DNA from: a virus
Lineage: Duplodnaviria > Heunggongvirae > Uroviricota > Caudoviricetes
IMG/VR virus record: IMGVR_UViG_2630968808_000002
Location: 1 to 10,672 of that record
Length of the DNA: 10,672 nucleotides
Direction: 5' to 3' (one strand)
The notes below the pieces were generated by a model. The model did no database searches. It was not told the origin of the DNA and was given only the letters and a program-made list of their open reading frames with translations. Below are positions 1 to 10,672 of this stretch, in pieces; positions within the stretch are counted from its first letter, which is position 1, and each line of letters starts with the position of its first letter. Position numbers and translations under genes: made by a program.

Positions 1-147
1 AATGCCCGGGAATGAGCGAAGATATCCGCTGCTGTTCAGGATTTCTTTGGGTGTAGCCAGCATATTCACTGGCAGATAGTCGATATAGTCGGCGTTTCTA
101 AAGTCTTTGCCGACACCTTTCATAAGCGGAAGTTGCTGAATCGGCAT
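1..147 (-). CDS. Partial CDS (first 49 codons; continues past window start): P22 gp10-like head completion / tail accessory protein
   Basis: ATG at 147-145 on the minus strand overlaps the TAA of the preceding gene (TAATG), with GGGAG 6 nt upstream. Frame is open to position 1, translating [49 protein letters not shown]. Position directly after the gp4-like gene fits P22 gene order 5-4-10. Identity rests on synteny and recollection, not a search. Confidence 0.6.
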   Translation of the reverse strand, partial: MPIQQLPLMKGVGKDFRNADYIDYLPVNMLATPKEILNSSGYLRSFPGI

Positions 148-624
148 TATTCGCTCCCATTATCGCAAGGTTCCTTTCGGTGGAAGTAATTCCAACCATT
201 CCACTTCGCCAACTGGTTACCGCTACCAACAGGCATACGGTTTGGATAACCGGACTTACATTTAGCGGCTTTTGCTCTGTCCATTGCAGACAGTTTGACG
301 AGTCGCTCTTTCCCGTATCTGGCAGTGGTTATAAGTTTTGCTGACGCTTCCAGCGCATAATCCGGAGCAATGCGGCAGGCAAGGTTGAAAATGACGGCAT
401 TGATAGCGTTATTTGATAAACCGTGCTCATCGCCCGGATCCGGAGCGACATCTGCATCAGCAAAAATGTAGCCAACGTTGATCCCAGGTGACGCATCACC
501 GCCAAGCCATTCAGCCATCATCATTTCAAGGTCGTTGACGCCGTCTTCCATAGACTGCGGTTCGACATCAGTTAACGTGGCATTTGATGCCACACCGAGC
601 TTACGTAATGCCGCAAGGACTAAA

Positions 625-647
<23 letters not shown>
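147..647 (-). CDS. Tail accessory factor / head completion protein, P22 gp4-like (166 aa)
   Basis: The ORF track gives 147..746 (199 aa), but the first 33 codons are an (SQ)8 read-through of the hexamer repeat and the ATG at 746 has GAAGG immediately abutting it with no spacer. The internal ATG at 647-645 gives [32 protein letters not shown]..., 166 aa, the size I recall for P22 gp4, with AAGGCGG upstream. Stop TAA at 149-147. Confidence 0.8.
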
Positions 648-885
<238 letters not shown>

Positions 886-898
886 GCTTGTCTCCAGA

Positions 899-922
899 TA
901 AAAAAGGGAGCCGAAGCTCCCT
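899..922 (-). terminator. Rho-independent terminator-like hairpin with U-tract directly downstream of the coat gene
   Basis: On the minus strand: AGGGAGC-TTCG-GCTCCCT (6-7 bp GC-rich stem, 4-nt loop, forward 905-922) followed by TTTTTT (forward 905-900). It starts 8 nt after the coat TGA. Confidence 0.55.
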
Positions 923-929
923 CTGGTTA

Positions 930-2225
930 TCACGCGGTCTGGTTAGGCAGACCAACACCAATTGCCTCTGGTCGTACAGCACATGCTGAATACCACACAG
1001 CAATACGGCACTTACCAGACAGAGTGTTGATATCACCCTGCGTTGCGAAGATGCCGTTAACACCAATACCAGGAATGCTGAAGGAAGACGTTTTCATGCC
1101 AGCAAACAGCTCATGGGTTACCGGGATCGGCTGAGACAGCAGACGGATTGAGTCATCAGCCCAGAACACGTTAGCGGTGGTTGTTGCCACGTTCAGAACG
1201 TTTACCGGAGTGGTATCAGCAAGAGAGGTGTTTACGTTAGCGTAAGCCTTCTCTTCTTTTGTCAGTGACGCGTCATCCAGCGCAATAGGCTTCGGCGTGA
1301 TTTCGATGTGAGTACCATCGATCACACGGGTGATTGAGAAAGTCGCGTCATCAGTCAGCACGTTCTTCGCCATCTGAGACAGGAATTTCACACCAGTGAA
1401 GCTGATTTTGTCGCCGCGCTTAAATCCGGTGGTGGAGGATACGGTCACCGTTGCAACACGGTTATCGACGTTCTCTTTGTTACCATCGGTATCAAGGGTG
1501 TATGCCTGCGGCTTAAACTTCTGCGCACCAGAAACAGTTACACCAGTAGCGGTTGACTTGGTAACTGCCGGAAGTTTCGGTGAGCGAAGAATTTCATCAA
1601 AGCCAGCAATCTGACGCTGAATAGTACCGTTGCGATACGCTTCTTCAGGAACGCGACCGAAGATGTCACCATCTACCAGGTTACGGCCTGCTTTGCGGTA
1701 ATCGTCAGGGTTCAGGAAGTAACTGATGCCCATGTCGCGGTTGAGTTCTCGGGAGAACATCAGGCGCTCTGCATCAGACACAAAATCCCAGCCAGACAGG
1801 CCAGTAGATGGACCAATTGCGCGGGTATCGTGAACAACAAGCGAGCCCATTTCAGTTGCCTGTTTGGCAATCGCTGACTCAATGTTATTCGCCAGTTTTT
1901 TGGCGGATGCCTGGATGCGGCGACGGTAAGAACGCTCATCACGCAGGTCATCTGCACGAAGCTCGAAGAAATCGTTATCCGGATCGCCCATGTTGCATTT
2001 CACGGACAGTTCCAGAATACCGGTAGCGTTGCCAGTTAAATCCCAGCCAGTCTGAGTTGGCGCTTCCTGCTCAACAGGCATCCACACGGTGTTGCTTGAA
2101 CGTTGCATGGATTCTGCCGGAGGGGTGTATTTTGTCACTTTAGACGCCATTGGCGTCAGGTTCTGGACGGTTTCGATGATTTCATCCAGAGCATACGTGA
2201 CCAGTTGACCTTCATTTAATGCCAT
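930..2225 (-). CDS. 5: Major capsid (coat) protein, P22 gp5-like (431 aa)
   Basis: ATG at 2225-2223 overlaps the scaffold stop (TAATG). Protein runs from [20 protein letters not shown] to GVGLPNQTA; I recognise it as closely matching P22 coat protein gp5 in both size and sequence. Followed by the terminator hairpin. Confidence 0.96.
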
Positions 2226-3136
2226 TATCGAATTCCTTTATTCAGTTGCGCCTTGAGCTTGCGGTATGTCTCTACATCCCCTTTGTTTGCTGCCGCTTCC
2301 ATCTGCTTTTCAATCGCAGAGATATTTGCAGCAACAGCGTGTCCCTGAATGGGTTCATCAGGTAACGGGGCTTCTGAAACAGGCTTGGCTCGAGGCTTGA
2401 GAGTTAAACGTTCTGACAGTCGAGTGAGTTCAATCAGCGCGGATTGCCCGTCCATCGCCAGCAACTGGCGTGTTTTCTCAGGATTAGCACCAAGGTGATA
2501 CATGAGAGCAGCGGATTTCTCCGGGAAGAGGCGCATGATGTCGGCACCGACTGCTGGCGGCACCAGTTGCATGAATGCATCCTCTTTCTCCTGATAGTCA
2601 GGGATATTGAGCTTTTCCGCTGCGTCGTAGTGCTTACGGGCTGCCTCGACGTATTGCGCTGATTGCTGGGTGAACTCCTGAGTTTTGCGGCCCTGCTCGG
2701 CTACAGCCTGGCTTCGTGCGTCCATAGCCTTGATCTGCCATTCACTGTTTGCCTGCTGGAAGGCAGCCAGTGCGCGGCTCTGGTCATAGTCGTACTTAGC
2801 CAGTGCGTCTTCGGAAAGATAATCGTTAGGGTCTGGTTGTTTTGGTAACTCAGGGTTCACCCGCAGGTGCTCTGGCAACTCTCCACGCTTAACCGCTTCC
2901 ATCTGCTGCTCAAGCTCACGCTGGCGTTTGCGTTCGATGCGGCGACGGGCAAATTCAGCATTAGTTGCCGGGTCTTGTTTTGGTTTCTCATCGTCTTTCA
3001 GGACAATCTCGAAGCCTTCTTCCTGACCTGCGTTGTCGTTGGCATTATCGACAACTAAGCCATCAGCAGATGCCGCTGCATGATTGCCGGGCAGGGTTAA
3101 TTCTTCAGAAGCCTGAATGTCGGTGGTTTGGTCCAT
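2225..3136 (-). CDS. 8: Scaffolding protein, P22 gp8-like (303 aa)
   Basis: ATG at 3136-3134 with GAGAG upstream. Charged helical protein ([27 protein letters not shown]...; C-terminal ...[18 protein letters not shown]) matching my recollection of P22 gp8 in length and sequence. Sits between portal and coat as in P22. Confidence 0.93.
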
Positions 3137-3149
3137 GATTAACTCTCTC

Positions 3150-5315
3150 TTATTGAGGTGTCTCGGCTACTCCGCCGGAGGGGATTTGAACTTGACGCAT
3201 AAGATTCGCGAAATCCATGCGTTGTGAATGAGTCTGGTCTGCATCTTTAAGAAGCAGCTCAGCGTTAGCACGAGCGTCTTTGCTGCGCTGTTGCTGGAAT
3301 TGACCTACGAGCTTGAGGTACTCACGCAGTTCTGCCTGCTTGTCGAGGTCCATATTGTTGAAGATTTCTGCAATCTTCGCGGCGTTGAGTTGGTTTTGGG
3401 CTTCAACCTTGGCGGCTTCAACCTGAATCTGCGCCTGTTGGTTCTCTGCCTTGAGCAATTCAGCCTGACCTTGCAGAAGGATACCCTGCGCCTGAATTTG
3501 CTCTGCTGATGGCTGCTGCGGCTGCTGTTGCGCCTGTTGCACCATCTCCATCTCTTCAGGTGTTTCTGGTTTCTTCAGCCCCATCATAACCAGTTGCTTG
3601 TTCGCGTACTCTCGCATCATCTCGACGCCTTTACCGTCAAGCAACGTGAAGTATTGCAGCATCAGCATCTGGAACTCTGGAGTACCTTGCGGAACCTTGG
3701 TGAGCAACTCCTGAATCTCTGCGCGATTCTGTTCCTTCATGCTCTGGAAGGATGGTCCAACGTCTGTATAGCACTCATAGCGACCGCGAATGTCGTTGAG
3801 TGTTACCACATTGCCGGACTGGTAATCGACAACTTGCGCATAGAGTTGAACGTCTTTCTCGCTTCCATCTTCGAGTGTCAGCGTTACATGACGAGGAACG
3901 TCATAAATATCGTTGACCATTGAGGCATAAATCTCGCCATCACGTCGCATTGCGGTAGCCAGGTTATCCTGAAACACGTATGTCTCAAGGTCTGCCCGCA
4001 TGTTCAGTTGATTGACGGTATCGAAAGCGACCTGACCATTTGCCGCCTGCGCATCCACGCCAAGACTAGCCACCTCTTTCACTGCGTTGGTGGCAGCCTC
4101 AAGCATGTAAGCGTTGGCTTGCGGCACTTCAGGGTTTTCCATGTAGGAGATTGGACCAATCGGAAGGTCGTTACCGTTTTCATCGGTCTTGTTCTGCAGA
4201 TAGTACGGATAGTCATCATTTCCACCGTACATGTATTCGTAGCCTTCGATTTGCTCAGGGAAGAAGGTCGGTTTCTTCTTCGGTGAACGAGCAACAATAT
4301 CGGCGTTGAACGACATGATCATGTTACGAAGGCGTTGACCGTCTTTCGTCAGCCTTACCACGCCCTCGTAGCACTCCTTGTCACCAGCGAATGACCATTC
4401 GCCGTACACAGGAACGATTGGGATATGCTCTCCAGCTATCTTCTCGCGGTCTTTCAGTATCTGCGTGCAGGTGATGATCGACTTATACACGCGCCGACGC
4501 TTCACCTTGCGCTCTGCTACCTTAATGAATCCACGATTAGCCAGGTCGTCGATGACGTCTTTGATATCCTGCTGGTAATAGCTGACCGGCTCACCTGTCA
4601 GCGGGTCGCGGTAGATGAAGACTTTCTCCTTCTTCTCTTCTACCTCGTAATACTCAGCGACGTAGACGACATCATTCGATACCCACGGAAACAGCCATGT
4701 ATCGTTCGGATTCTGGAAAGATGGCAAGGTATCCGGATCAATACCGTAATCCTCTGCGAACTCTTTCCAGCCATTGCGCGACAAGGCGTTAATCACCGTG
4801 CAGTGCTTAGCGTCGCTCTTATCCATCTGCTTGCTGTTGGCGTCCCATATGACGTGTGAGCAGGCTTCATGAATTGGCAGGCGTCGAATTACCTGATTGT
4901 TGCTTGTTGGATCGTTGTCTTCGTACTGCGTGACCAGACGCCATGCACCAACGCCGGACTCTATCTGCTCACGAACGCCAACGTTAACGGCAATTTTTGC
5001 CGTGTTATGGCGCATATCAGTACGATACATCCCCATCAGCACATCGGCAGCATCAGGATTAGCGCCGTCTTTGGGTCGGAAGAGAACGTCGATAGGGTTC
5101 CGGCGCATCTCTGCGACCAGCTTCCTGACCACCGGGCGAACAACATCGAATTGTCCGCGATATTGCAGGGTAGTGTAGTTTGATAGCCAGTCATCCCATT
5201 GCGACACTCGGCTAAAATACAGGTCATTTGTCGCCTCGGTTCTGGCTTCATCGCTCGCCATCCAGTCCGCGTCAAACTTACACAGAATGGAATTGAGTCT
5301 GTTTTCGTCGGCCAT
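3150..5315 (-). CDS. 1: Portal protein, P22 gp1-like (721 aa)
   Basis: ATG at 5315-5313 directly abuts the TAA of the large terminase. Protein starts [18 protein letters not shown] and has a long C-terminal Gln-rich helical region ([10 protein letters not shown]...[52 protein letters not shown]), consistent with the P22 portal barrel. Size is close to the P22 portal. Confidence 0.96.
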
Positions 5316-6815
5316 TTAAGTTCTCCGTGCGATGGGCCTGATTGGGGCTGGTATCTTTTTCTCTTTTGGTTTTTTGATGTCGCGCATCATTTTGGCGAAG
5401 CGGCGCATCATGTATGCATAGCGAACGGCGGATAGCACGTCGTCGTTAAGCTTGACGATCTTCCCGTTTTCATCACGGTGATAGAGGCGGAACTCCTCAA
5501 AGAATGGCTCACAGGTGTTAAATACTTTGAAGCGACCATCAAGCATCATGTCGCGCAATTCAGTGATTCCAGGCTCCACAGCGTTACCGCCATCAGGCCA
5601 TGTCGCATGCTCCTGCAACATCATAAAACCAGCGTCCGCGTACTGCCCTTTGAGCTGCTCACCGCCGCCCTTCTCATGCTGGTTTCCGTCATGAGGCCAT
5701 GCGGTTGGCACTTTATGCGCCCATGATTTAACAGCTCCCCATGCCTGAACAGCTGTTTTTTCTTTCGCCTTCCACACGCGTGAAACGTAGATTGTGTCTG
5801 CGTCCTTATCCCACCAAAGCTGAACCTGCGCCTGTGGGTGATCCCATCCGAAATCCATCCCACCAATTACGTAGAAGTGATCAGGACACTCGAACGGCTG
5901 ACACTTAATAGTCTCTTCCGGTATCTGGAAGATTCGACCGCTACCCATCGTAGGAATACCGCGAGCACGCGCCTCTCTCTCATGCTCGGGATAGGATGCG
6001 ATGATTTGCTCTTTCTGCTCGTCGGTGTAGTGCTCAGCGTCATAGATGGTCATGTTGACCACTTTCTGCGACTTGCTGGGATTCTTCAGGAACTTGGTAA
6101 CAACGTCAGACATCCCCATCAGCGGGGTAAACGTCAGAATTGAGAATTGCCCGTATTTGTTGGTACGGGTAAGGCCTTCGCCATAAATGCTGTATGGTGG
6201 CTCTTCGTCAAACCACACGCCGTGGATTGTGTCACCCTGCCAGCGAGCGCGACCTTGCGAGTATGGTTTGAAGTAGCAGATTGAAATGCCATCTTCAACG
6301 CCATCAGCCGTGTGATGCTTAACCAGAAGATGATCAACAAGGTTCGGAAAGAAAGGAGACTTCTTCCAGCTAATGATGTCTTCTTTAGGTATGGAACCGT
6401 AGCCTGGCTCATCATTCTCTTCGATACGACCACACAGGATGCGTTGAGTCGTTTTGGTTACAGTCTCGTTTGTCTCGCCGCCAATCCAGAAGACAACAGG
6501 CTCATAGAAACGCTTACCTTTCCACTCCCCACCATATTTACCATCAGCCGGATAGCCTTTTGTTCCCGGATAACGCCCGGTAAGGTGAAACGCGACTTCA
6601 GCAGCCCCAGTAAATGACTTACCAAGCTGGTTACCAGCCATAAAACAGCGCTCTGGATAGTCATGCCCGGCATCGATGAACTCACGCTGTTTGCTGTATG
6701 GCGTAAATTCATATAGCAGGTGTGTGTTCCGGTAGTTCTCTTCTTCTTCGAGTAGCTCGAGCAACTCGATTTGCTCTTCGTCGCTCAGGTTATCAAGAAT
6801 CGCGTCCAGTTCCAC
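5316..6815 (-). CDS. 2: Terminase large subunit, P22 gp2-like (499 aa), GTG start
   Basis: Start codon at 6815-6813 is GTG (reverse complement of cac) and overlaps the small terminase by 23 nt. Translation [30 protein letters not shown]... with a Walker A-like ATPase motif AGNQLGKS near the N-terminus. 499 aa, the size I recall for P22 gp2. Confidence 0.94.
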
Positions 6816-7281
6816 GGTTGAATAGCTCCTTGATACGAGAGCGCCGCTTATCGCGATCTCCCTTATCAGGTGTCACGTCTTCAACTTGCGACTGCTCTTT
6901 GAGGCCCAAATCACGGGCGATGATGTTAGCGTTGAGAAGGTCAGCGGCTGCGCCAGAGAATTTCTGGTCGTAGATGATGTCTTCCGCTCGTGATGTGACG
7001 TCAGAAAAACCTTCCATTGACCGGAAGGTTCCCCATGTTTGCCTGGTGATATCAAGGAAGGTACACAATCCTGAAATAGTCATGGCTCGCATCTTAGGGA
7101 CATTAGCCTTAATTATTTCTCCCTGATATGAAAATACCTTACCCTCCCATAGCGGGTTATCATCAGCCCACTCGAAGTATTCACAACAAGCAGCCCACAG
7201 CGCCTCAGGCGATTCGAATTTAGGATTTCGCCCATGACTACTGCGGGCCTCCCAAAATCGGTTGCCCTTTGGTGCTGCCAT
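6793..7281 (-). CDS. 3: Terminase small subunit, P22 gp3-like (162 aa)
   Basis: ATG at 7281-7279, 5 nt after the stop of the HslV-like gene. N-terminus [38 protein letters not shown] and C-terminus [39 protein letters not shown] match my recollection of P22 gp3, also 162 aa. Confidence 0.9.
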
Positions 7282-7286
7282 ATTGA

Positions 7287-7775
7287 TTATTTCCCTTCTG
7301 CTTGCTTCCCAGTGGTGAACGAATCAACGCCGCCGCCGGAATAGCAGTCAAGATCAATTGCGACTTGTACCGCTTCTCTCGCATTTTTGCCACAGTGCAT
7401 GGCAGTGCGAGCAATCAGCCCACCACTACCAATGGCGTAAGGTTCAACCTGTAGCGAAATACTCGCCCGCGTTTCGCCTTTCTCTTTTGAGATGATGTAA
7501 GCACGACCAGCACCGATGATAGCAAGCGCTGTGAAAGAGAATGTCGGGAGAAATTCTGATGCATACGTCAGGTTGTTCTTAAGCAGTTCCTGCAATTCCA
7601 TCTCCGCGCCGCAATCACCAGAACAACCTAATGCAACCACTTTACTGCCGCAAACCTCCCACCCAGATTCTGGCGGTGTGTAAATCTTTTGTTCTGTATA
7701 CGAACACACAACATCACCAGATGATGCCTGGGTGTCAGATGCCAGGGTCTTTCCATCCCATGCAATAGTGGTCAT
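7287..7775 (-). CDS. HslV / proteasome beta-subunit-like N-terminal-nucleophile peptidase homolog (162 aa)
   Basis: ATG at 7775-7773 with GGAG 8 nt upstream, 1 nt after the stop of the 80-aa gene. N-terminus [20 protein letters not shown] resembles HslV [24 protein letters not shown], with Thr directly after the initiator Met and a D-x-Q-A-S/T motif. EQKIY aligns with the HslV Lys33 region, [17 protein letters not shown] with KVIAGFAGGTADAFTLFEL, and there is an exact AIGSGG motif. Assignment is from manual comparison with E. coli HslV as I recall it. Confidence 0.8.
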
Positions 7776-7776
7776 A

Positions 7777-8019
7777 TCATGCTCCGGTAGTGAACAGGTC
7801 TAACGCTTCCTTCGATTTACGCACCGCTTCGATAGTTCGGGTCGTGATATCTGAATTAGCGCCACCTGACTGGAAGTGAATTTTGAATAGCTCAAGCTTC
7901 AGTTCGTCAGTGCCAATGAACTGAAATGCTTCTTCTGCGGCTGCGTTCTGGTTCATGACCAGTTTGTAAATCTCTAACTGGAATTTCTGTTCTTCAGTCA
8001 TGGGAATAATCTCTGCCAT
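7777..8019 (-). CDS. Hypothetical protein (80 aa), predicted helical and acidic; translationally coupled to the HslV-like gene
   Basis: ATG at 8019-8017 with GGAG 8 nt upstream. Translation MAEIIPMTEEQKFQLEIYKLVMNQNAAAEEAFQFIGTDELKLELFKIHFQSGGANSDITTRTIEAVRKSKEALDLFTTGA. Its TGA at 7779-7777 is 1 nt from the next ATG. No family recognised. Confidence 0.7.
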   Translation of the reverse strand: MAEIIPMTEEQKFQLEIYKLVMNQNAAAEEAFQFIGTDELKLELFKIHFQSGGANSDITTRTIEAVRKSKEALDLFTTGA

Positions 8020-8321
8020 TGTTGGCTCCGTTTATCCGTTAAAAGGGATATCAGTTAAGTTATCCCGTGTAGGGTATAAGCCATTGTCGAGACCACTCAT
8101 TGAATGGCCTCTGCAATAACCGATGTCTTTCCATCAGTCCGCCACCACAAAGAATCTTTTTTGCCATAAGGCTGGAGGTTCATCTTTCAGTGGCTGCCAG
8201 TGTTATTTCCCCACTTACTGGCTTGGGTTGTTTCGCTGTACTGCCGCAACTGGTTGCCCAGAATAAATTCCGGTTTCATTATCAAGCCCACCCGTAGATG
8301 GGCTTTGTAATGACTACATGG

Positions 8322-8801
8322 TTAAATGATTTGCCAGTCTTCAGCCATCAGGTCGCCAATGGATGGAACCCATGTAGCAAGGCGGTTCTGTGAGTTTTTC
8401 AATACAAGCGTGTCATTGAAAGTTGGCTCGCCAACATATTCGCCAAAGCCATAACCCAACGCAGACGCTAATTTTTCCCCTTTCACGAGATAAACAAACT
8501 GGTCTTTCCCATTCCATCCTGCCCGCTGCAAACTTTTGCCCTGTTTTAACGCTTCCATGGCAAGGCCGAAACTTAGTCCTGATACCGGACGATAAGCCTT
8601 TTCGAATACTTCTTTTGGACTCCAGCTAACGTAGCCATCAAAGCGATCGGTGTTAGGTTTCCCGCCATCCAGATATTCAACCAGATAGCCTTCGTCCTCG
8701 CCGTTTTCTCCGGCAGGAAGCTGCCAGCCACGAAAATCGTTATATGCCTGTCTCGTCATCGGAAAGGCGTTAATCAGTTTTACGCCAATATGCTGGGTCA
8801 T
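8322..8801 (-). CDS. Two-repeat DUF2829 / Tad2-like protein (159 aa); candidate anti-defence or accessory protein
   Basis: ATG at 8801-8799. The C-terminal half (FGLAMEALKQGKSLQRAGWNGKDQFVYLV...TWVPSIGDLMAEDWQII) carries the hallmarks I associate with DUF2829: K-x-G-K...R-x-G-W-N-G-K, then W-x-P-S...D-L-x-A-E-D-W at the C-terminus. The N-terminal half (...FRGWQLPAGENGEDEGYLVEY...SWSPKEVFEKAY) looks like a degenerate copy of the same unit. Bracketed by a terminator-like hairpin upstream and a hairpin downstream. Confidence 0.7.
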   Translation of the reverse strand: MTQHIGVKLINAFPMTRQAYNDFRGWQLPAGENGEDEGYLVEYLDGGKPNTDRFDGYVSWSPKEVFEKAYRPVSGLSFGLAMEALKQGKSLQRAGWNGKDQFVYLVKGEKLASALGYGFGEYVGEPTFNDTLVLKNSQNRLATWVPSIGDLMAEDWQII

Positions 8802-8821
8802 AAAATTACCTATGGAGTTGG

Positions 8822-8847
8822 GAATAAAAACCCCGCGAATGCGAGGC
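8822..8847 (-). terminator. Terminator-like hairpin with U-tract between Rz and the DUF2829-like gene
   Basis: On the minus strand: CCTCGC-ATTC-GCGGGG (forward 8831-8846, one internal mismatch) followed by TTTTTATT (forward 8830-8823). Lies about 175 nt downstream of the Rz stop and about 20 nt upstream of the next gene's ribosome-binding site. Confidence 0.45.
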
Positions 8848-9021
8848 TAAATCCTGGTGTTTGTGATGACTGGCTCTTATCTCAACGCAGCCCCTTACCG
8901 CGCGCCAGATGCTCAATATCAAGCATCAGCAATGAGATGTTTAATCTGGATTCACTCCAGAAGTGATCACCACCCTGTCTACAGAGCCAGATGTGAAGGA
9001 TGATGAGTAAAATTATCGCTA

Positions 9022-9459
9022 TCATCGAAGGCATTGCGTCCTGATGTATTCCTGCAGGTAGTTAACCTGCGCGGTTATCCTGTCGATTCCACTTCGGAGA
9101 CGGTAATAATTGAGTTCAGCATCTGCTGTAAGTCTTGGGCTTTCTCCATCGCCCATGCTGCTGGCTCCGGTCGTTGGCTTTGCACAGGTGGCGGCGACTT
9201 GCAGGCGCTTACGACCAGCAGAAACATCAGCACGGAGGCTTTCGATAGTCTCGTTAGCATCAGCAAGCTCCTTTGTGTATCTGGCGTCGAGTTCTGCTAC
9301 ATCACGTTGACGCTTCTGCATGTCAGCAATTGTGGATGCGGCCTTATCGCGCTGCTCTTTGTAGGCGATGGCGTTATCACGGTAGTGATTAACAGCCCAT
9401 GACAGGCAAACGATGATGCAGATAACCAGAGCGGAGATAATCGCGGTTACTCTGCTCAT
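9022..9459 (-). CDS. Rz: Spanin inner-membrane subunit Rz (i-spanin), lambda-type (145 aa)
   Basis: ATG at 9459-9457 overlaps the R stop (ATGA). Translation [31 protein letters not shown]... has an N-terminal transmembrane segment followed by a coiled-coil region, and is recognisably lambda Rz-like. Confidence 0.94.
9075..9260 (-). CDS. Rz1: Spanin outer-membrane lipoprotein Rz1 (o-spanin), embedded in the +1 frame of Rz (61 aa from the ATG)
   Basis: ATG at 9260-9258 with AAGGAG 9 nt upstream; the track begins 2 codons earlier at a TTG. Translation [36 protein letters not shown]... has a signal peptide, a lipobox VSAC, and a proline-rich mature part. It lies entirely inside Rz, the classic lambda Rz/Rz1 arrangement. 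Confidence 0.8.
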
Positions 9460-9932
9460 GCCTGACTCTCTCTGACCGTTCCGCCTGCTTCTTTGAATTT
9501 TGCAATCAGGCTGTCAGCCTTATGCTCGAACTGACCATAACCAGCACCCGGCAACGAAGCCCAGATATTGCTGCAACGGTCGATTGCCTGACGGATATCA
9601 CCGCGATCAATCATCGGTAAAGCGCCACGCTCTTTAATCTGCTGTAGTGCAACAGCGTCCTGACTTTTGGGGGAGAAGTCTTTCAGGCCAAGCTGCTTGC
9701 GGTAGGCGTCCCACCAACGGGAAAGAAGCTGGTAACGTCCGGCTGCCGTTGATTTGAGTTTTGGGTTTAGCGTGACAAGTTTGCGAGGGTGATCGGAGTA
9801 ATCAGTGAATAGCTCTCCGCCAACAATGACGTCATAACCATGATTTCTGGTTTTCTGCCGTCCGTTATCAGTTCCCTCTGACCACGCCAGCATATCGAGG
9901 AACGCCTTACGTTGATTATTGATTTCCACCAT
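9456..9932 (-). CDS. R: Endolysin, lambda R-type lytic transglycosylase (158 aa)
   Basis: ATG at 9932-9930. Translation [51 protein letters not shown]... is near-identical over the N-terminal region to lambda R as I recall it, including the catalytic Glu in WSEGTD. Confidence 0.96.
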
Positions 9933-10239
9933 CTTCTACTCCGGCTTTTTTAGCAGCGAAGCGTTTGATAAGCGAACCAATCGAGTCAGTACCGATGTAG
10001 CCGATAAACACGCTCGTTATATAAGCGAGATTGCTACTTAGTCCGGCGAAGTCGAGAAGGTCACGAATGAACCAGGCGATAATGGCGCACATCGTTGCGT
10101 CGATTACTGTTTTTGTAAACGCACCGCCATTATATCTGCCGCGAAGGTACGCCATTGCAAACGCAAGGATTGCCCCGATGCCTTGTTCCTTTGCCGCGAG
10201 AATGGCGGCTAACAGGTCATGTTTTTCTGGCATCTTCAT
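9916..10239 (-). CDS. S: Holin / antiholin, lambda S-type class I holin with dual start Met1-Lys2-Met3 (107 and 105 aa forms)
   Basis: ATG AAG ATG at 10239-10231. Translation [62 protein letters not shown]... is recognisable as lambda S, with three transmembrane segments and a charged C-terminus. Overlaps the R start. Confidence 0.96.
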
Positions 10240-10244
10240 GTCTT

Positions 10245-10261
10245 ACCCCCAATAAGGGGAT
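10245..10261 (-). promoter_or_regulatory. Stem-loop immediately upstream of the S start codons (lambda sdi-like translational control structure)
   Basis: On the minus strand: ATCCCC-TTATT-GGGGGT (inverted repeat CCCC/GGGG at forward 10247-10250 and 10256-10259) ending 5 nt before ATGAAGATG. In lambda the equivalent structure sets the S107:S105 initiation ratio. Function here is inferred by analogy. Confidence 0.4.
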
Positions 10262-10672
10262 TTGCTCTATTTAATTAGGAATAAGGTCGATTACTGATAG
10301 AACAAATCCAGGCTACTGTGTTTAGTAATCAGATTTGTTCGTGACCGATATGCACGGGCAAAACGGCAGGAGGTTGTTAGCGCAACCTCATGCCACCCGC
10401 TTTCACGAAGGTCATGTGTAGAAGGCCGCAGCGTAACTATCACCGATGAATTCATGATAGCCAGTGGCTACGGCTCAGTTTGGGTTGTGGCGGCCGGAAT
10501 CGAACCGGCTTCCATTGGTGCGCTGCCGATTGCAGTACGCGCGGCGGTCAGCTACATGACTAGTATTTTCACTATCGCCTATCTGCTAGCTCGCCATTGA
10601 GCTTCACCACAACGATAAGAGCACTGCGCGGCACCTTTCACCAATTCCGCGAGGTCTGCGGGTTCAATGCTC

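Follow-up and report, generated by a model that had tools for sequence, protein, structure and literature searches.

Homologs of the proteasome encoded by viruses form a large family, recognised bioinformatically in 2021. PPH is one of 22 new proteasome-like groups then described (Fuchs, Alva and Lupas, 2021; PMC8665760). PPH proteins are approximately 140 residues long, occur in Caudovirales and prophages, and fall into group I, close to HslV and BPH; they possess neither a propeptide nor the C-terminal S12/H5, and helix H2 is absent only in PPH and RPC (PMC8665760). BPH (Betaproteobacteria proteasome homolog) is the product of a cellular, stress-linked gene and assembles into tetradecamers; in HslV the residues Arg86, Arg89 and Lys90 lie at the end of H2, at the pore, in a region that HslU remodels and on which activity depends (PMC5777263). 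In connectase, an archaeal protein ligase, an insertion at S3/S4 covers the active site and sets specificity (PMC8665760). An HslV without HslU has also been remarked in a jumbo phage (PMC7823757). Here we describe a gene of 489 bp (7287-7775) encoding a 162-aa proteasome/HslV-like predicted Thr1 peptidase that almost certainly belongs to the PPH clade. It lies in a stretch of 10,672 nt (positions 1-10,672 of IMG/VR record IMGVR_UViG_2630968808_000002), hereafter the window, whose genes make up the late region of a phage or prophage of the P22-like (Lederbergvirus) type. Every gene of the window, and every feature of it given below by position, is on the minus strand unless stated otherwise.

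Taken as a whole, the analysis inclines us to regard the product as a self-contained peptidase of narrow specificity, with a dispensable function that is directed at the host or serves counter-defence.

Fold, active site and family of the peptidase

Searches with the single sequence are nearly blind to this protein. Pfam returned no PF00227 match at E<=1, NCBIfam returned no HslV model (TIGR03634, archaeal proteasome beta, appeared at E=0.0031 with 17 bits vs. a cut-off of 224), and nothing significant was found among PDB sequences (1q5q at 0.8). The family profile and the comparison of folds were decisive. Against PDB sequences the profile gave matches from 1.9e-10 to approximately 1e-8, including proteasome beta (3h4p, 1.9e-10) and HslV (1m4y, 7.8e-9), and in PHROGs the protein matched phrog_1040, ‘peptidase HslV family’ (3e-37). 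An AlphaFold2 model computed with the homolog alignment (mean pLDDT 95.6, pTM 0.90) has the alpha-beta-beta-alpha Ntn fold. A preliminary description of this stretch had proposed a proteasome/HslV-like Thr1 peptidase and suggested a profile search and a structure prediction as checks; both came out on the proteasome/HslV side, and the proposed fold is borne out by the profile matches, the Ntn model and an intact catalytic set.

The translation likewise confirms the three features on which that proposal had been founded, namely Thr directly after Met (MTT), Lys30, and AIGSGG at residues 114-119, a string also present in T. maritima HslV in the alignment. A search of a 5.8-billion-protein collection yielded 102 homologs, and conservation was assessed in an alignment of 52 that extends down to approximately 30% identity to the window peptidase. 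The first three codons, M1-T2-T3, occupy 7767-7775; M1 and T2 are invariant, T3 is conserved in at least 90%, and Thr2 is the predicted N-terminal nucleophile. Three further invariant columns correspond to catalytic positions of the proteasome: Asp14 (7734-7736) to Asp17, Lys30 (7686-7688) to Lys33, also of HslV, and Gly53 (7617-7619) to the oxyanion-hole Gly47. G116-S117-G118 of AIGSGG (7422-7430) falls in the region of proteasome Ser129, with both glycines invariant. From its D-x-x-S spacing and its place in helix H4 we infer that D143-C-Y-S146 (7338-7349) is the equivalent of proteasome Asp166/Ser169; D143 and G147 are conserved in at least 90% of homologs, and both S117 and S146 are present in the window protein. 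A5, A122 and A135 complete the invariant columns. Because M1, T2, D14, K30, G53, G116 and G118 are invariant across this range of identity, the catalytic features are not due to chance. The window peptidase has no propeptide. Methionine aminopeptidase tolerates Thr in second position, E. coli HslV being an example. From the known specificity of this aminopeptidase, Met1 is probably removed and Thr2 exposed, and the conserved residues suggest that the 162-aa protein is an active Thr1 peptidase.

Two regions set this protein apart from HslV. The first is residues 67-80 (7536-7577), which form a loop where HslV and proteasome beta subunits have helix H2. Secondary structure assigned to the model by DSSP comprises a single helix (57-66) between strands 48-53 and 81-88, and in the profile alignment to HslV 1m4y approximately 15 HslV residues (..AVELAKDWRTDRVLR..) of H2 have no counterpart. 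HslV thus has H2 with its Arg86/Arg89/Lys90 pore cluster whereas the window protein does not, and BPH keeps H2 and a long acidic pore loop, neither of which is found here. The second region is an insertion of 15 residues (33-47; 7635-7679) between Lys30 and Gly53, at the S3/S4 site. It forms a beta-hairpin beside the active site, with strands at 39-41 and 44-46 in the model, and is absent from HslV. It is present in the enterobacterial and jumbo-phage members of the family, not in those of approximately 140 aa. Connectase, a much more distant fold match than HslV, has its S3/S4 insertion built of two helices in contrast to the hairpin of the window protein. Overall, the window protein is approximately 20-21% identical to HslV, is phage-encoded, and has no hslU adjacent. 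The HslV/proteasome-like identification in the preliminary description therefore stands for the class of enzyme, and the protein is not HslV proper, in view of the missing H2, the absence of any Pfam or NCBIfam HslV match, and the lack of hslU beside the gene.

Membership of PPH was set by the published description rather than by clustering with the representative WP_042125023.1. The window protein has no H2, no propeptide and no C-terminal S12/H5, and its origin is a tailed phage or prophage. Like it, published PPH proteins are compact subunits starting with MTT, have the full catalytic set, and are nearest to HslV and BPH. Its 162 residues, vs. approximately 140 in PPH, are accounted for by the S3/S4 hairpin and a short tail. 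In an exhaustive search, 9167 cluster representatives (50% identity) matched the family profile at E<=1e-10, a count that may take in some remote relatives of HslV or of the proteasome; of the best 150, most are 138-155 aa long. Occurrences of the family include 123 phage records, 185 IMG/VR stretches and P22-like prophages in E. coli. Earlier papers (PMC8665760; PMC7823757) and annotation (phrog_1040; the copy in phage Dewey is annotated ‘peptidase HslV family protein’) already cover this family, its distribution among phages and the lack of a partner ATPase, so that the novelty implied by the preliminary description does not extend to them. What is new here is the exact swap slot in P22-like phages and the subclade with the S3/S4 hairpin, together with the recurrent place of the gene upstream of packaging genes and the tandem arrays of paralogs in jumbo phages.

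The slot directly after orf80

The peptidase gene follows orf80 (7777-8019), a standard late-region gene of P22-like phages that is found in P22, HK620 (HkbM) and Sf6 (gp67). Its 80-aa product is a DUF2560 protein (PF10834; 1.1e-43, 147.7 bits vs. a cut-off of 25), identical to P22 Orf80 at 79 of 80 positions and encoded in the same place upstream of gene 3. At the junction of the two genes (7776-7785), the GGAG Shine-Dalgarno sequence of the peptidase gene (7782-7785) lies inside the 3' end of orf80, 6 nt upstream of the peptidase ATG (7773-7775), and a spacer of 1 nt (7776) separates this ATG from the orf80 stop codon TGA (7777-7779). At its other end the peptidase gene is separated by 5 nt (7282-7286) from the start of the small terminase gene gp3 (6793-7281; Pfam GP3_package, 8e-31), whose ribosome-binding stretch (GAAGGGAAATAATCAAT) overlaps the end of the peptidase gene. 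Both spacings had been given in the preliminary description and are confirmed in the sequence, as is the embedding of the gene in the late operon: no sigma-70-like promoter site occurs on the coding strand between 6700 and 9100. No terminator was found 3' of the peptidase gene, and no tRNA or Rfam element near it. A foreign base composition was also considered and ruled out, the GC content of the gene (0.497) matching that of the window (0.504). With no promoter-like site to itself and with its translation coupled to that of orf80, the gene should be read from the late transcript, and its product would be made alongside the lysis and packaging proteins.

The tight spacing had been described as welding the gene, coupled to an 80-aa protein, into the late operon. 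It is not special, because it is the normal architecture of the slot. The order in P22 is orf80, one base, orf59c and gene 3, with hkbM-hkbN of HK620 and gp67-gp68 of Sf6 arranged likewise; P22 orf59c and HK620 hkbN share the same TGA-N-start junction, and the sequence ...GGAGCATGA-T-(A/G)TG is the same ahead of orf59c/hkbN and ahead of the peptidase gene. The supposed absence of the two genes from the P22 reference genome holds for one of them: orf80 is a standard P22 gene, and the slot behind it contains orf59c, not the peptidase.

Nor do the two genes form a dedicated pair. In a sample of 5426 complete E. coli genomes, orf80 is present in 899, orf59c in 159 and the peptidase gene in 10. A survey of co-occurrence had been suggested in the preliminary description, and we find the pair not to be constant: among 35 clusters (90% identity) of peptidase-bearing loci, with 170 neighbouring genes, a DUF2560 gene lies within two genes of the peptidase in 8, and the remaining 27 have none there. 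In phage Dewey a 95-aa gene stands between orf80 and the peptidase gene, and a search for a conserved small partner upstream met with unrelated PHROGs in Dewey, IME346 and SeSz-2. Orf80 and the peptidase are adjacent in a swap slot and do not make up a functional pair.

In this slot, directly after orf80 of the P22-like late operon, the peptidase gene is optional cargo. The same position is occupied by orf59c/hkbN in P22/HK620, by nothing in many prophages, and is empty in ETEC4085. That the gene is optional follows from its rarity in E. coli genomes, from the empty slot of ETEC4085, and from gp3 WP_000729920.1, which is identical in a prophage with the peptidase gene (MS 115-1) and in one without (ETEC4085). 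TerL is 93-100% identical between phages with and without the gene. The copy in E. coli MS 115-1 (NZ_CP146665.1, 3234867-3235355; locus L004) is 97.5% identical to that of the window and resides in an apparently complete P22-like prophage; MS 115-1 is a model for a CBASS defence system and could be a convenient experimental host. The orf80-peptidase unit is also found ahead of a different terminase module, in locus L002, with the 5-nt junction unchanged. In this locus, from E. coli Res13-Lact-PEB17-18, the gene 3' of the peptidase (3070-3495, minus strand) is in the small-terminase position before a PBSX-family large terminase and is named ‘ubiquitin carboxyl-hydrolase’ in RefSeq (WP_194153723.1), probably a misnomer.

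Beyond P22-like phages the setting of the gene varies. In Klebsiella phage IME346 it belongs to a small cassette of three genes that lies within the tail module, oriented the opposite way, and Skatevirus-like contigs carry it between TerL and portal. Up to four genes downstream, the 35 clusters encode large terminases (Terminase_6N in 12, Terminase_3 in 3), small terminases of three families and portals that belong to three families or more. On the upstream side, DUF2560 (7), Tad2-like (2), Acb2/Tad1-hairpin (2), Rha (2) and KilA-N (2) proteins are among the neighbours, as are lysis genes. The simplest reading makes the peptidase gene mobile and accessory, settling in permissive slots that border the packaging module; known counter-defence genes also gather there. 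Tad2-like and Acb2/Tad1-hairpin proteins are encoded up to three genes upstream of the peptidase in 4 of the 35 clusters, this window included, and by their sequences genes for cyclic-nucleotide sponges appear to recur beside PPH genes.

At the level of individual proteins, the Acb2/Tad1 hairpin domain (PF24729, best 9.5e-19) was detected in 2 of 87 upstream neighbours and the Tad2-like domain in 2. The window gene concerned (8322-8801), two genes upstream of the peptidase, encodes a 159-aa protein with a Tad2-like domain (DUF2829; Thoeris anti-defence 2; PF11195, 6e-22) at residues 77-159. The N-terminal 75 residues of this protein match phrog_872, and its gene occurs in related prophages with and without the peptidase. 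PADLOC returned no match for the peptidase, Orf80 or the Tad2-like protein.

Proposed function of the peptidase

How would an enzyme of this kind act in the absence of a neighbouring unfoldase? As stated in the preliminary description, no HslU-like ATPase is encoded among the open reading frames (ORFs) of the window, nor is any other AAA+ unfoldase. No member of the HslU/Clp-type (AAA_2) family was reported among the 170 neighbours of the 35 clusters either; the AAA-type Pfam matches there were a single downstream AAA_30, AAA_19 and AAA_22, beside one PhoH-like match. In the scheme that we favour, the peptidase gene would be translated late, coupled to orf80, with the lysis and packaging proteins. 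Removal of Met1 would make Thr2 the N-terminal nucleophile of a compact, propeptide-free subunit, and the peptidase, presumably as an oligomer of such subunits, would work without HslU. Its specificity would be narrow, with a single protein or a few, from host or phage, cleaved late in the infection. Its role would be a dispensable, accessory one, for which host takeover or counter-defence seems likelier than virion assembly.

Several points weigh against this scheme. HslV is nearly inactive without HslU, and its HslU-independent relative BPH is inert in standard assays (PMC5777263), so PPH may also need an activator. Our search of the literature found no experimental study of any PPH, which is mentioned only at the level of annotation; for DUF2560 it turned up passing occurrences, one or two of them, in two papers. 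The hosts seen for PPH are Proteobacteria throughout, and Proteobacteria have HslU. Three jumbo phages, ChrisDB, Huxley and MET_P1_082_240, carry both PPH and an HslU-like AAA+ gene, the two being approximately 100 kb apart. Given these phages with both genes and these hosts with HslU, PPH may make use of an unfoldase. In at least 15 of the 35 clusters the peptidase gene is just upstream of terminase and portal genes of unrelated families, a recurrent place that might point to a function in packaging or in the assembly of heads rather than simply to a site that permits insertion. The counter-defence part of the scheme, which may hold, has the gene neighbourhood as its basis.

Dependence on the unfoldase of the host is possible, although we consider it unlikely. 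Peptidase rings would then dock on host HslU or compete with HslV, giving a hybrid ATP-dependent protease whose substrates the phage selects, or an HslU diverted from its usual ones. HslV is the nearest fold, neither HslV nor BPH is active alone, every host seen has HslU, and three jumbo phages pair PPH with an HslU-like gene, all of which would suit such an arrangement. However, the helix whose end bears the Arg86/Arg89/Lys90 pore residues in HslV (PMC5777263) is the one that is missing here, and no Pfam or NCBIfam HslV model matches. In the jumbo phages the HslU-like gene is remote from PPH, its neighbours (RAY gp117 and gp118; ChrisDB gp129-gp134) and RAY gp1 have no relation to PPH, and records of Pseudomonas phage EL-like phages, a group with PPH, are not among the HslU-like matches listed. 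Because H2 is absent, activation by HslU in the canonical manner is weakened, not disproved.

PPH might also be a late phage protease against host proteins, such as factors of defence or of the stress response, acting alone or docked on host HslU; we put this forward tentatively, as a proposal that is itself unlikely to be correct. If it were true, counter-defence or host takeover by proteolysis would gain a new class of factor in PPH, and the P22-like prophage copy, in a phage that is well understood, would be a tractable system for it. That copy sits in a small, genetically tractable E. coli prophage in which the gene is clearly dispensable, and prophages with an empty slot or with orf59c provide natural, isogenic-like controls. 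Work on it would also touch on the question of how a proteasome-like fold works when helix H2 is missing.

It is improbable that the peptidase is a moron, a factor for lysogenic conversion or superinfection exclusion that is expressed from the prophage and made in the lysogen rather than during lytic growth. Optional cargo in a variable slot would be expected of such a gene, and the cassette of opposite orientation in IME346 is compatible with it. Yet its strand bears no promoter-like site, the gene is not followed by a terminator and is coupled at distances of 1 nt and 5 nt to orf80 and gp3, and homologs are found in jumbo, Klebsiella and Salmonella phages that were deposited as isolated genomes with no prophage state evident.

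A slightly lower probability still is given to a morphogenetic protease that would process scaffold, coat, portal or terminase while heads are assembled or packaged, one of the roles raised in the preliminary description. Its attraction is positional: the product would be made with the late proteins, and the gene immediately precedes those for small terminase, large terminase and portal, of several unrelated families, in the clusters counted above, and lies between TerL and portal in the Skatevirus-like contigs. P22-like heads, however, are well established to assemble without proteolysis. A prohead protease should be present throughout the lineage that shares its head genes, whereas the peptidase gene occurs in 10 E. 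coli genomes vs. 899 with orf80, and prophages with and without it share gp3 WP_000729920.1 and near-identical TerL. ChrisDB, a PPH carrier, moreover has a separately annotated head maturation protease.

Least probable of all is a dominant-negative decoy that would mix into or cap host HslV or HslU and block HslUV without proteolysis of its own, since, although the general fold is as in HslV and no partner gene is present, a decoy needs no catalysis and a catalytically dead one fits poorly with the invariance of Thr1, Asp17, Lys33 and Gly47 and the strong conservation of GSG down to approximately 30% identity, while approximately 20% identity to HslV and the missing H2 make mixed rings unlikely.

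Jumbo-phage loci and other features of the window

Contigs of jumbo phages contain tandem arrays of two or three PPH paralogs (locus L058, 6001-7954; L062/L063, 5081-7124; L056, 6001-7209; L057, 3219-4492). Some of these paralogs start with MS (Ser1), one has Arg at the Lys33 position, and many carry C-terminal extensions resembling PPxPxVxSxRP. By analogy with alpha/beta proteasomes, this suggests hetero-oligomers that include inactive subunits, and the arrays may represent the RPC group described by Fuchs et al. By eye, no Walker A motif is obvious in the neighbours of 461-498 aa and 282 aa that flank the arrays. DUF7484 is matched by four jumbo-phage upstream neighbours, most likely those of 282 aa, and a tubulin-like gene is found near the arrays, with TubZ_C_2 matches that most likely belong to ORFs of 321-322 aa.

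The HslU-like AAA+ proteins of Erwinia and Salmonella jumbo phages comprise AAA and AAA_2 domains with a large insertion, as in ChrisDB gp132 (L094, 3001-4743) and RAY gp116 (L090, 1353-3062). RAY gp116, assigned to the ‘HslVU protease family’ in a preprint, was examined in the search for an unfoldase partner and is HslU-like, an AAA+ protein, rather than HslV-like. It was reported to localise to the phage nucleus (bioRxiv 10.1101/2023.02.24.529968).

The remainder of the window follows the P22-like late order. Upstream of the Tad2-like gene is a lysis cassette of holin (9916-10239), a 158-aa ORF in the lysozyme position (9456-9932) and Rz (9022-9459). A Pfam search with the 158-aa ORF gave no match; its counterparts in related records are annotated as glycoside hydrolase family 24 or endolysin. 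Downstream of gp3 are the large terminase TerL (5316-6815), a P22-type portal (3150-5315), scaffold (2225-3136), coat (930-2225) and gp4 (147-746).

A perfect tandem repeat of the hexanucleotide TCTGGC (x 7.7, in the strand as given) occupies 695-740. Its minus-strand reading yields (EP)n close to the C-terminal end of a 102-aa ORF (625-933) and (SQ)n in an upstream extension of the gp4 ORF, in which the Pfam P22_Tail-4 match begins only at residue 35. Between Rz and the Tad2-like gene lies a terminator-like hairpin with a T run (8829-8848), and the 302 nt upstream of orf80 (8020-8321) contain no plausible gene, the corresponding gap in P22 being longer. Neither of these two intervals contains a promoter-like site, a tRNA or an Rfam family. 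Finally, a 63-aa ORF (9075-9266) is nested within Rz in another frame. Its LVVSAC resembles a lipoprotein box and precedes a proline-rich stretch, and its sequence fits a putative Rz1 o-spanin, as in P22 and Sf6.

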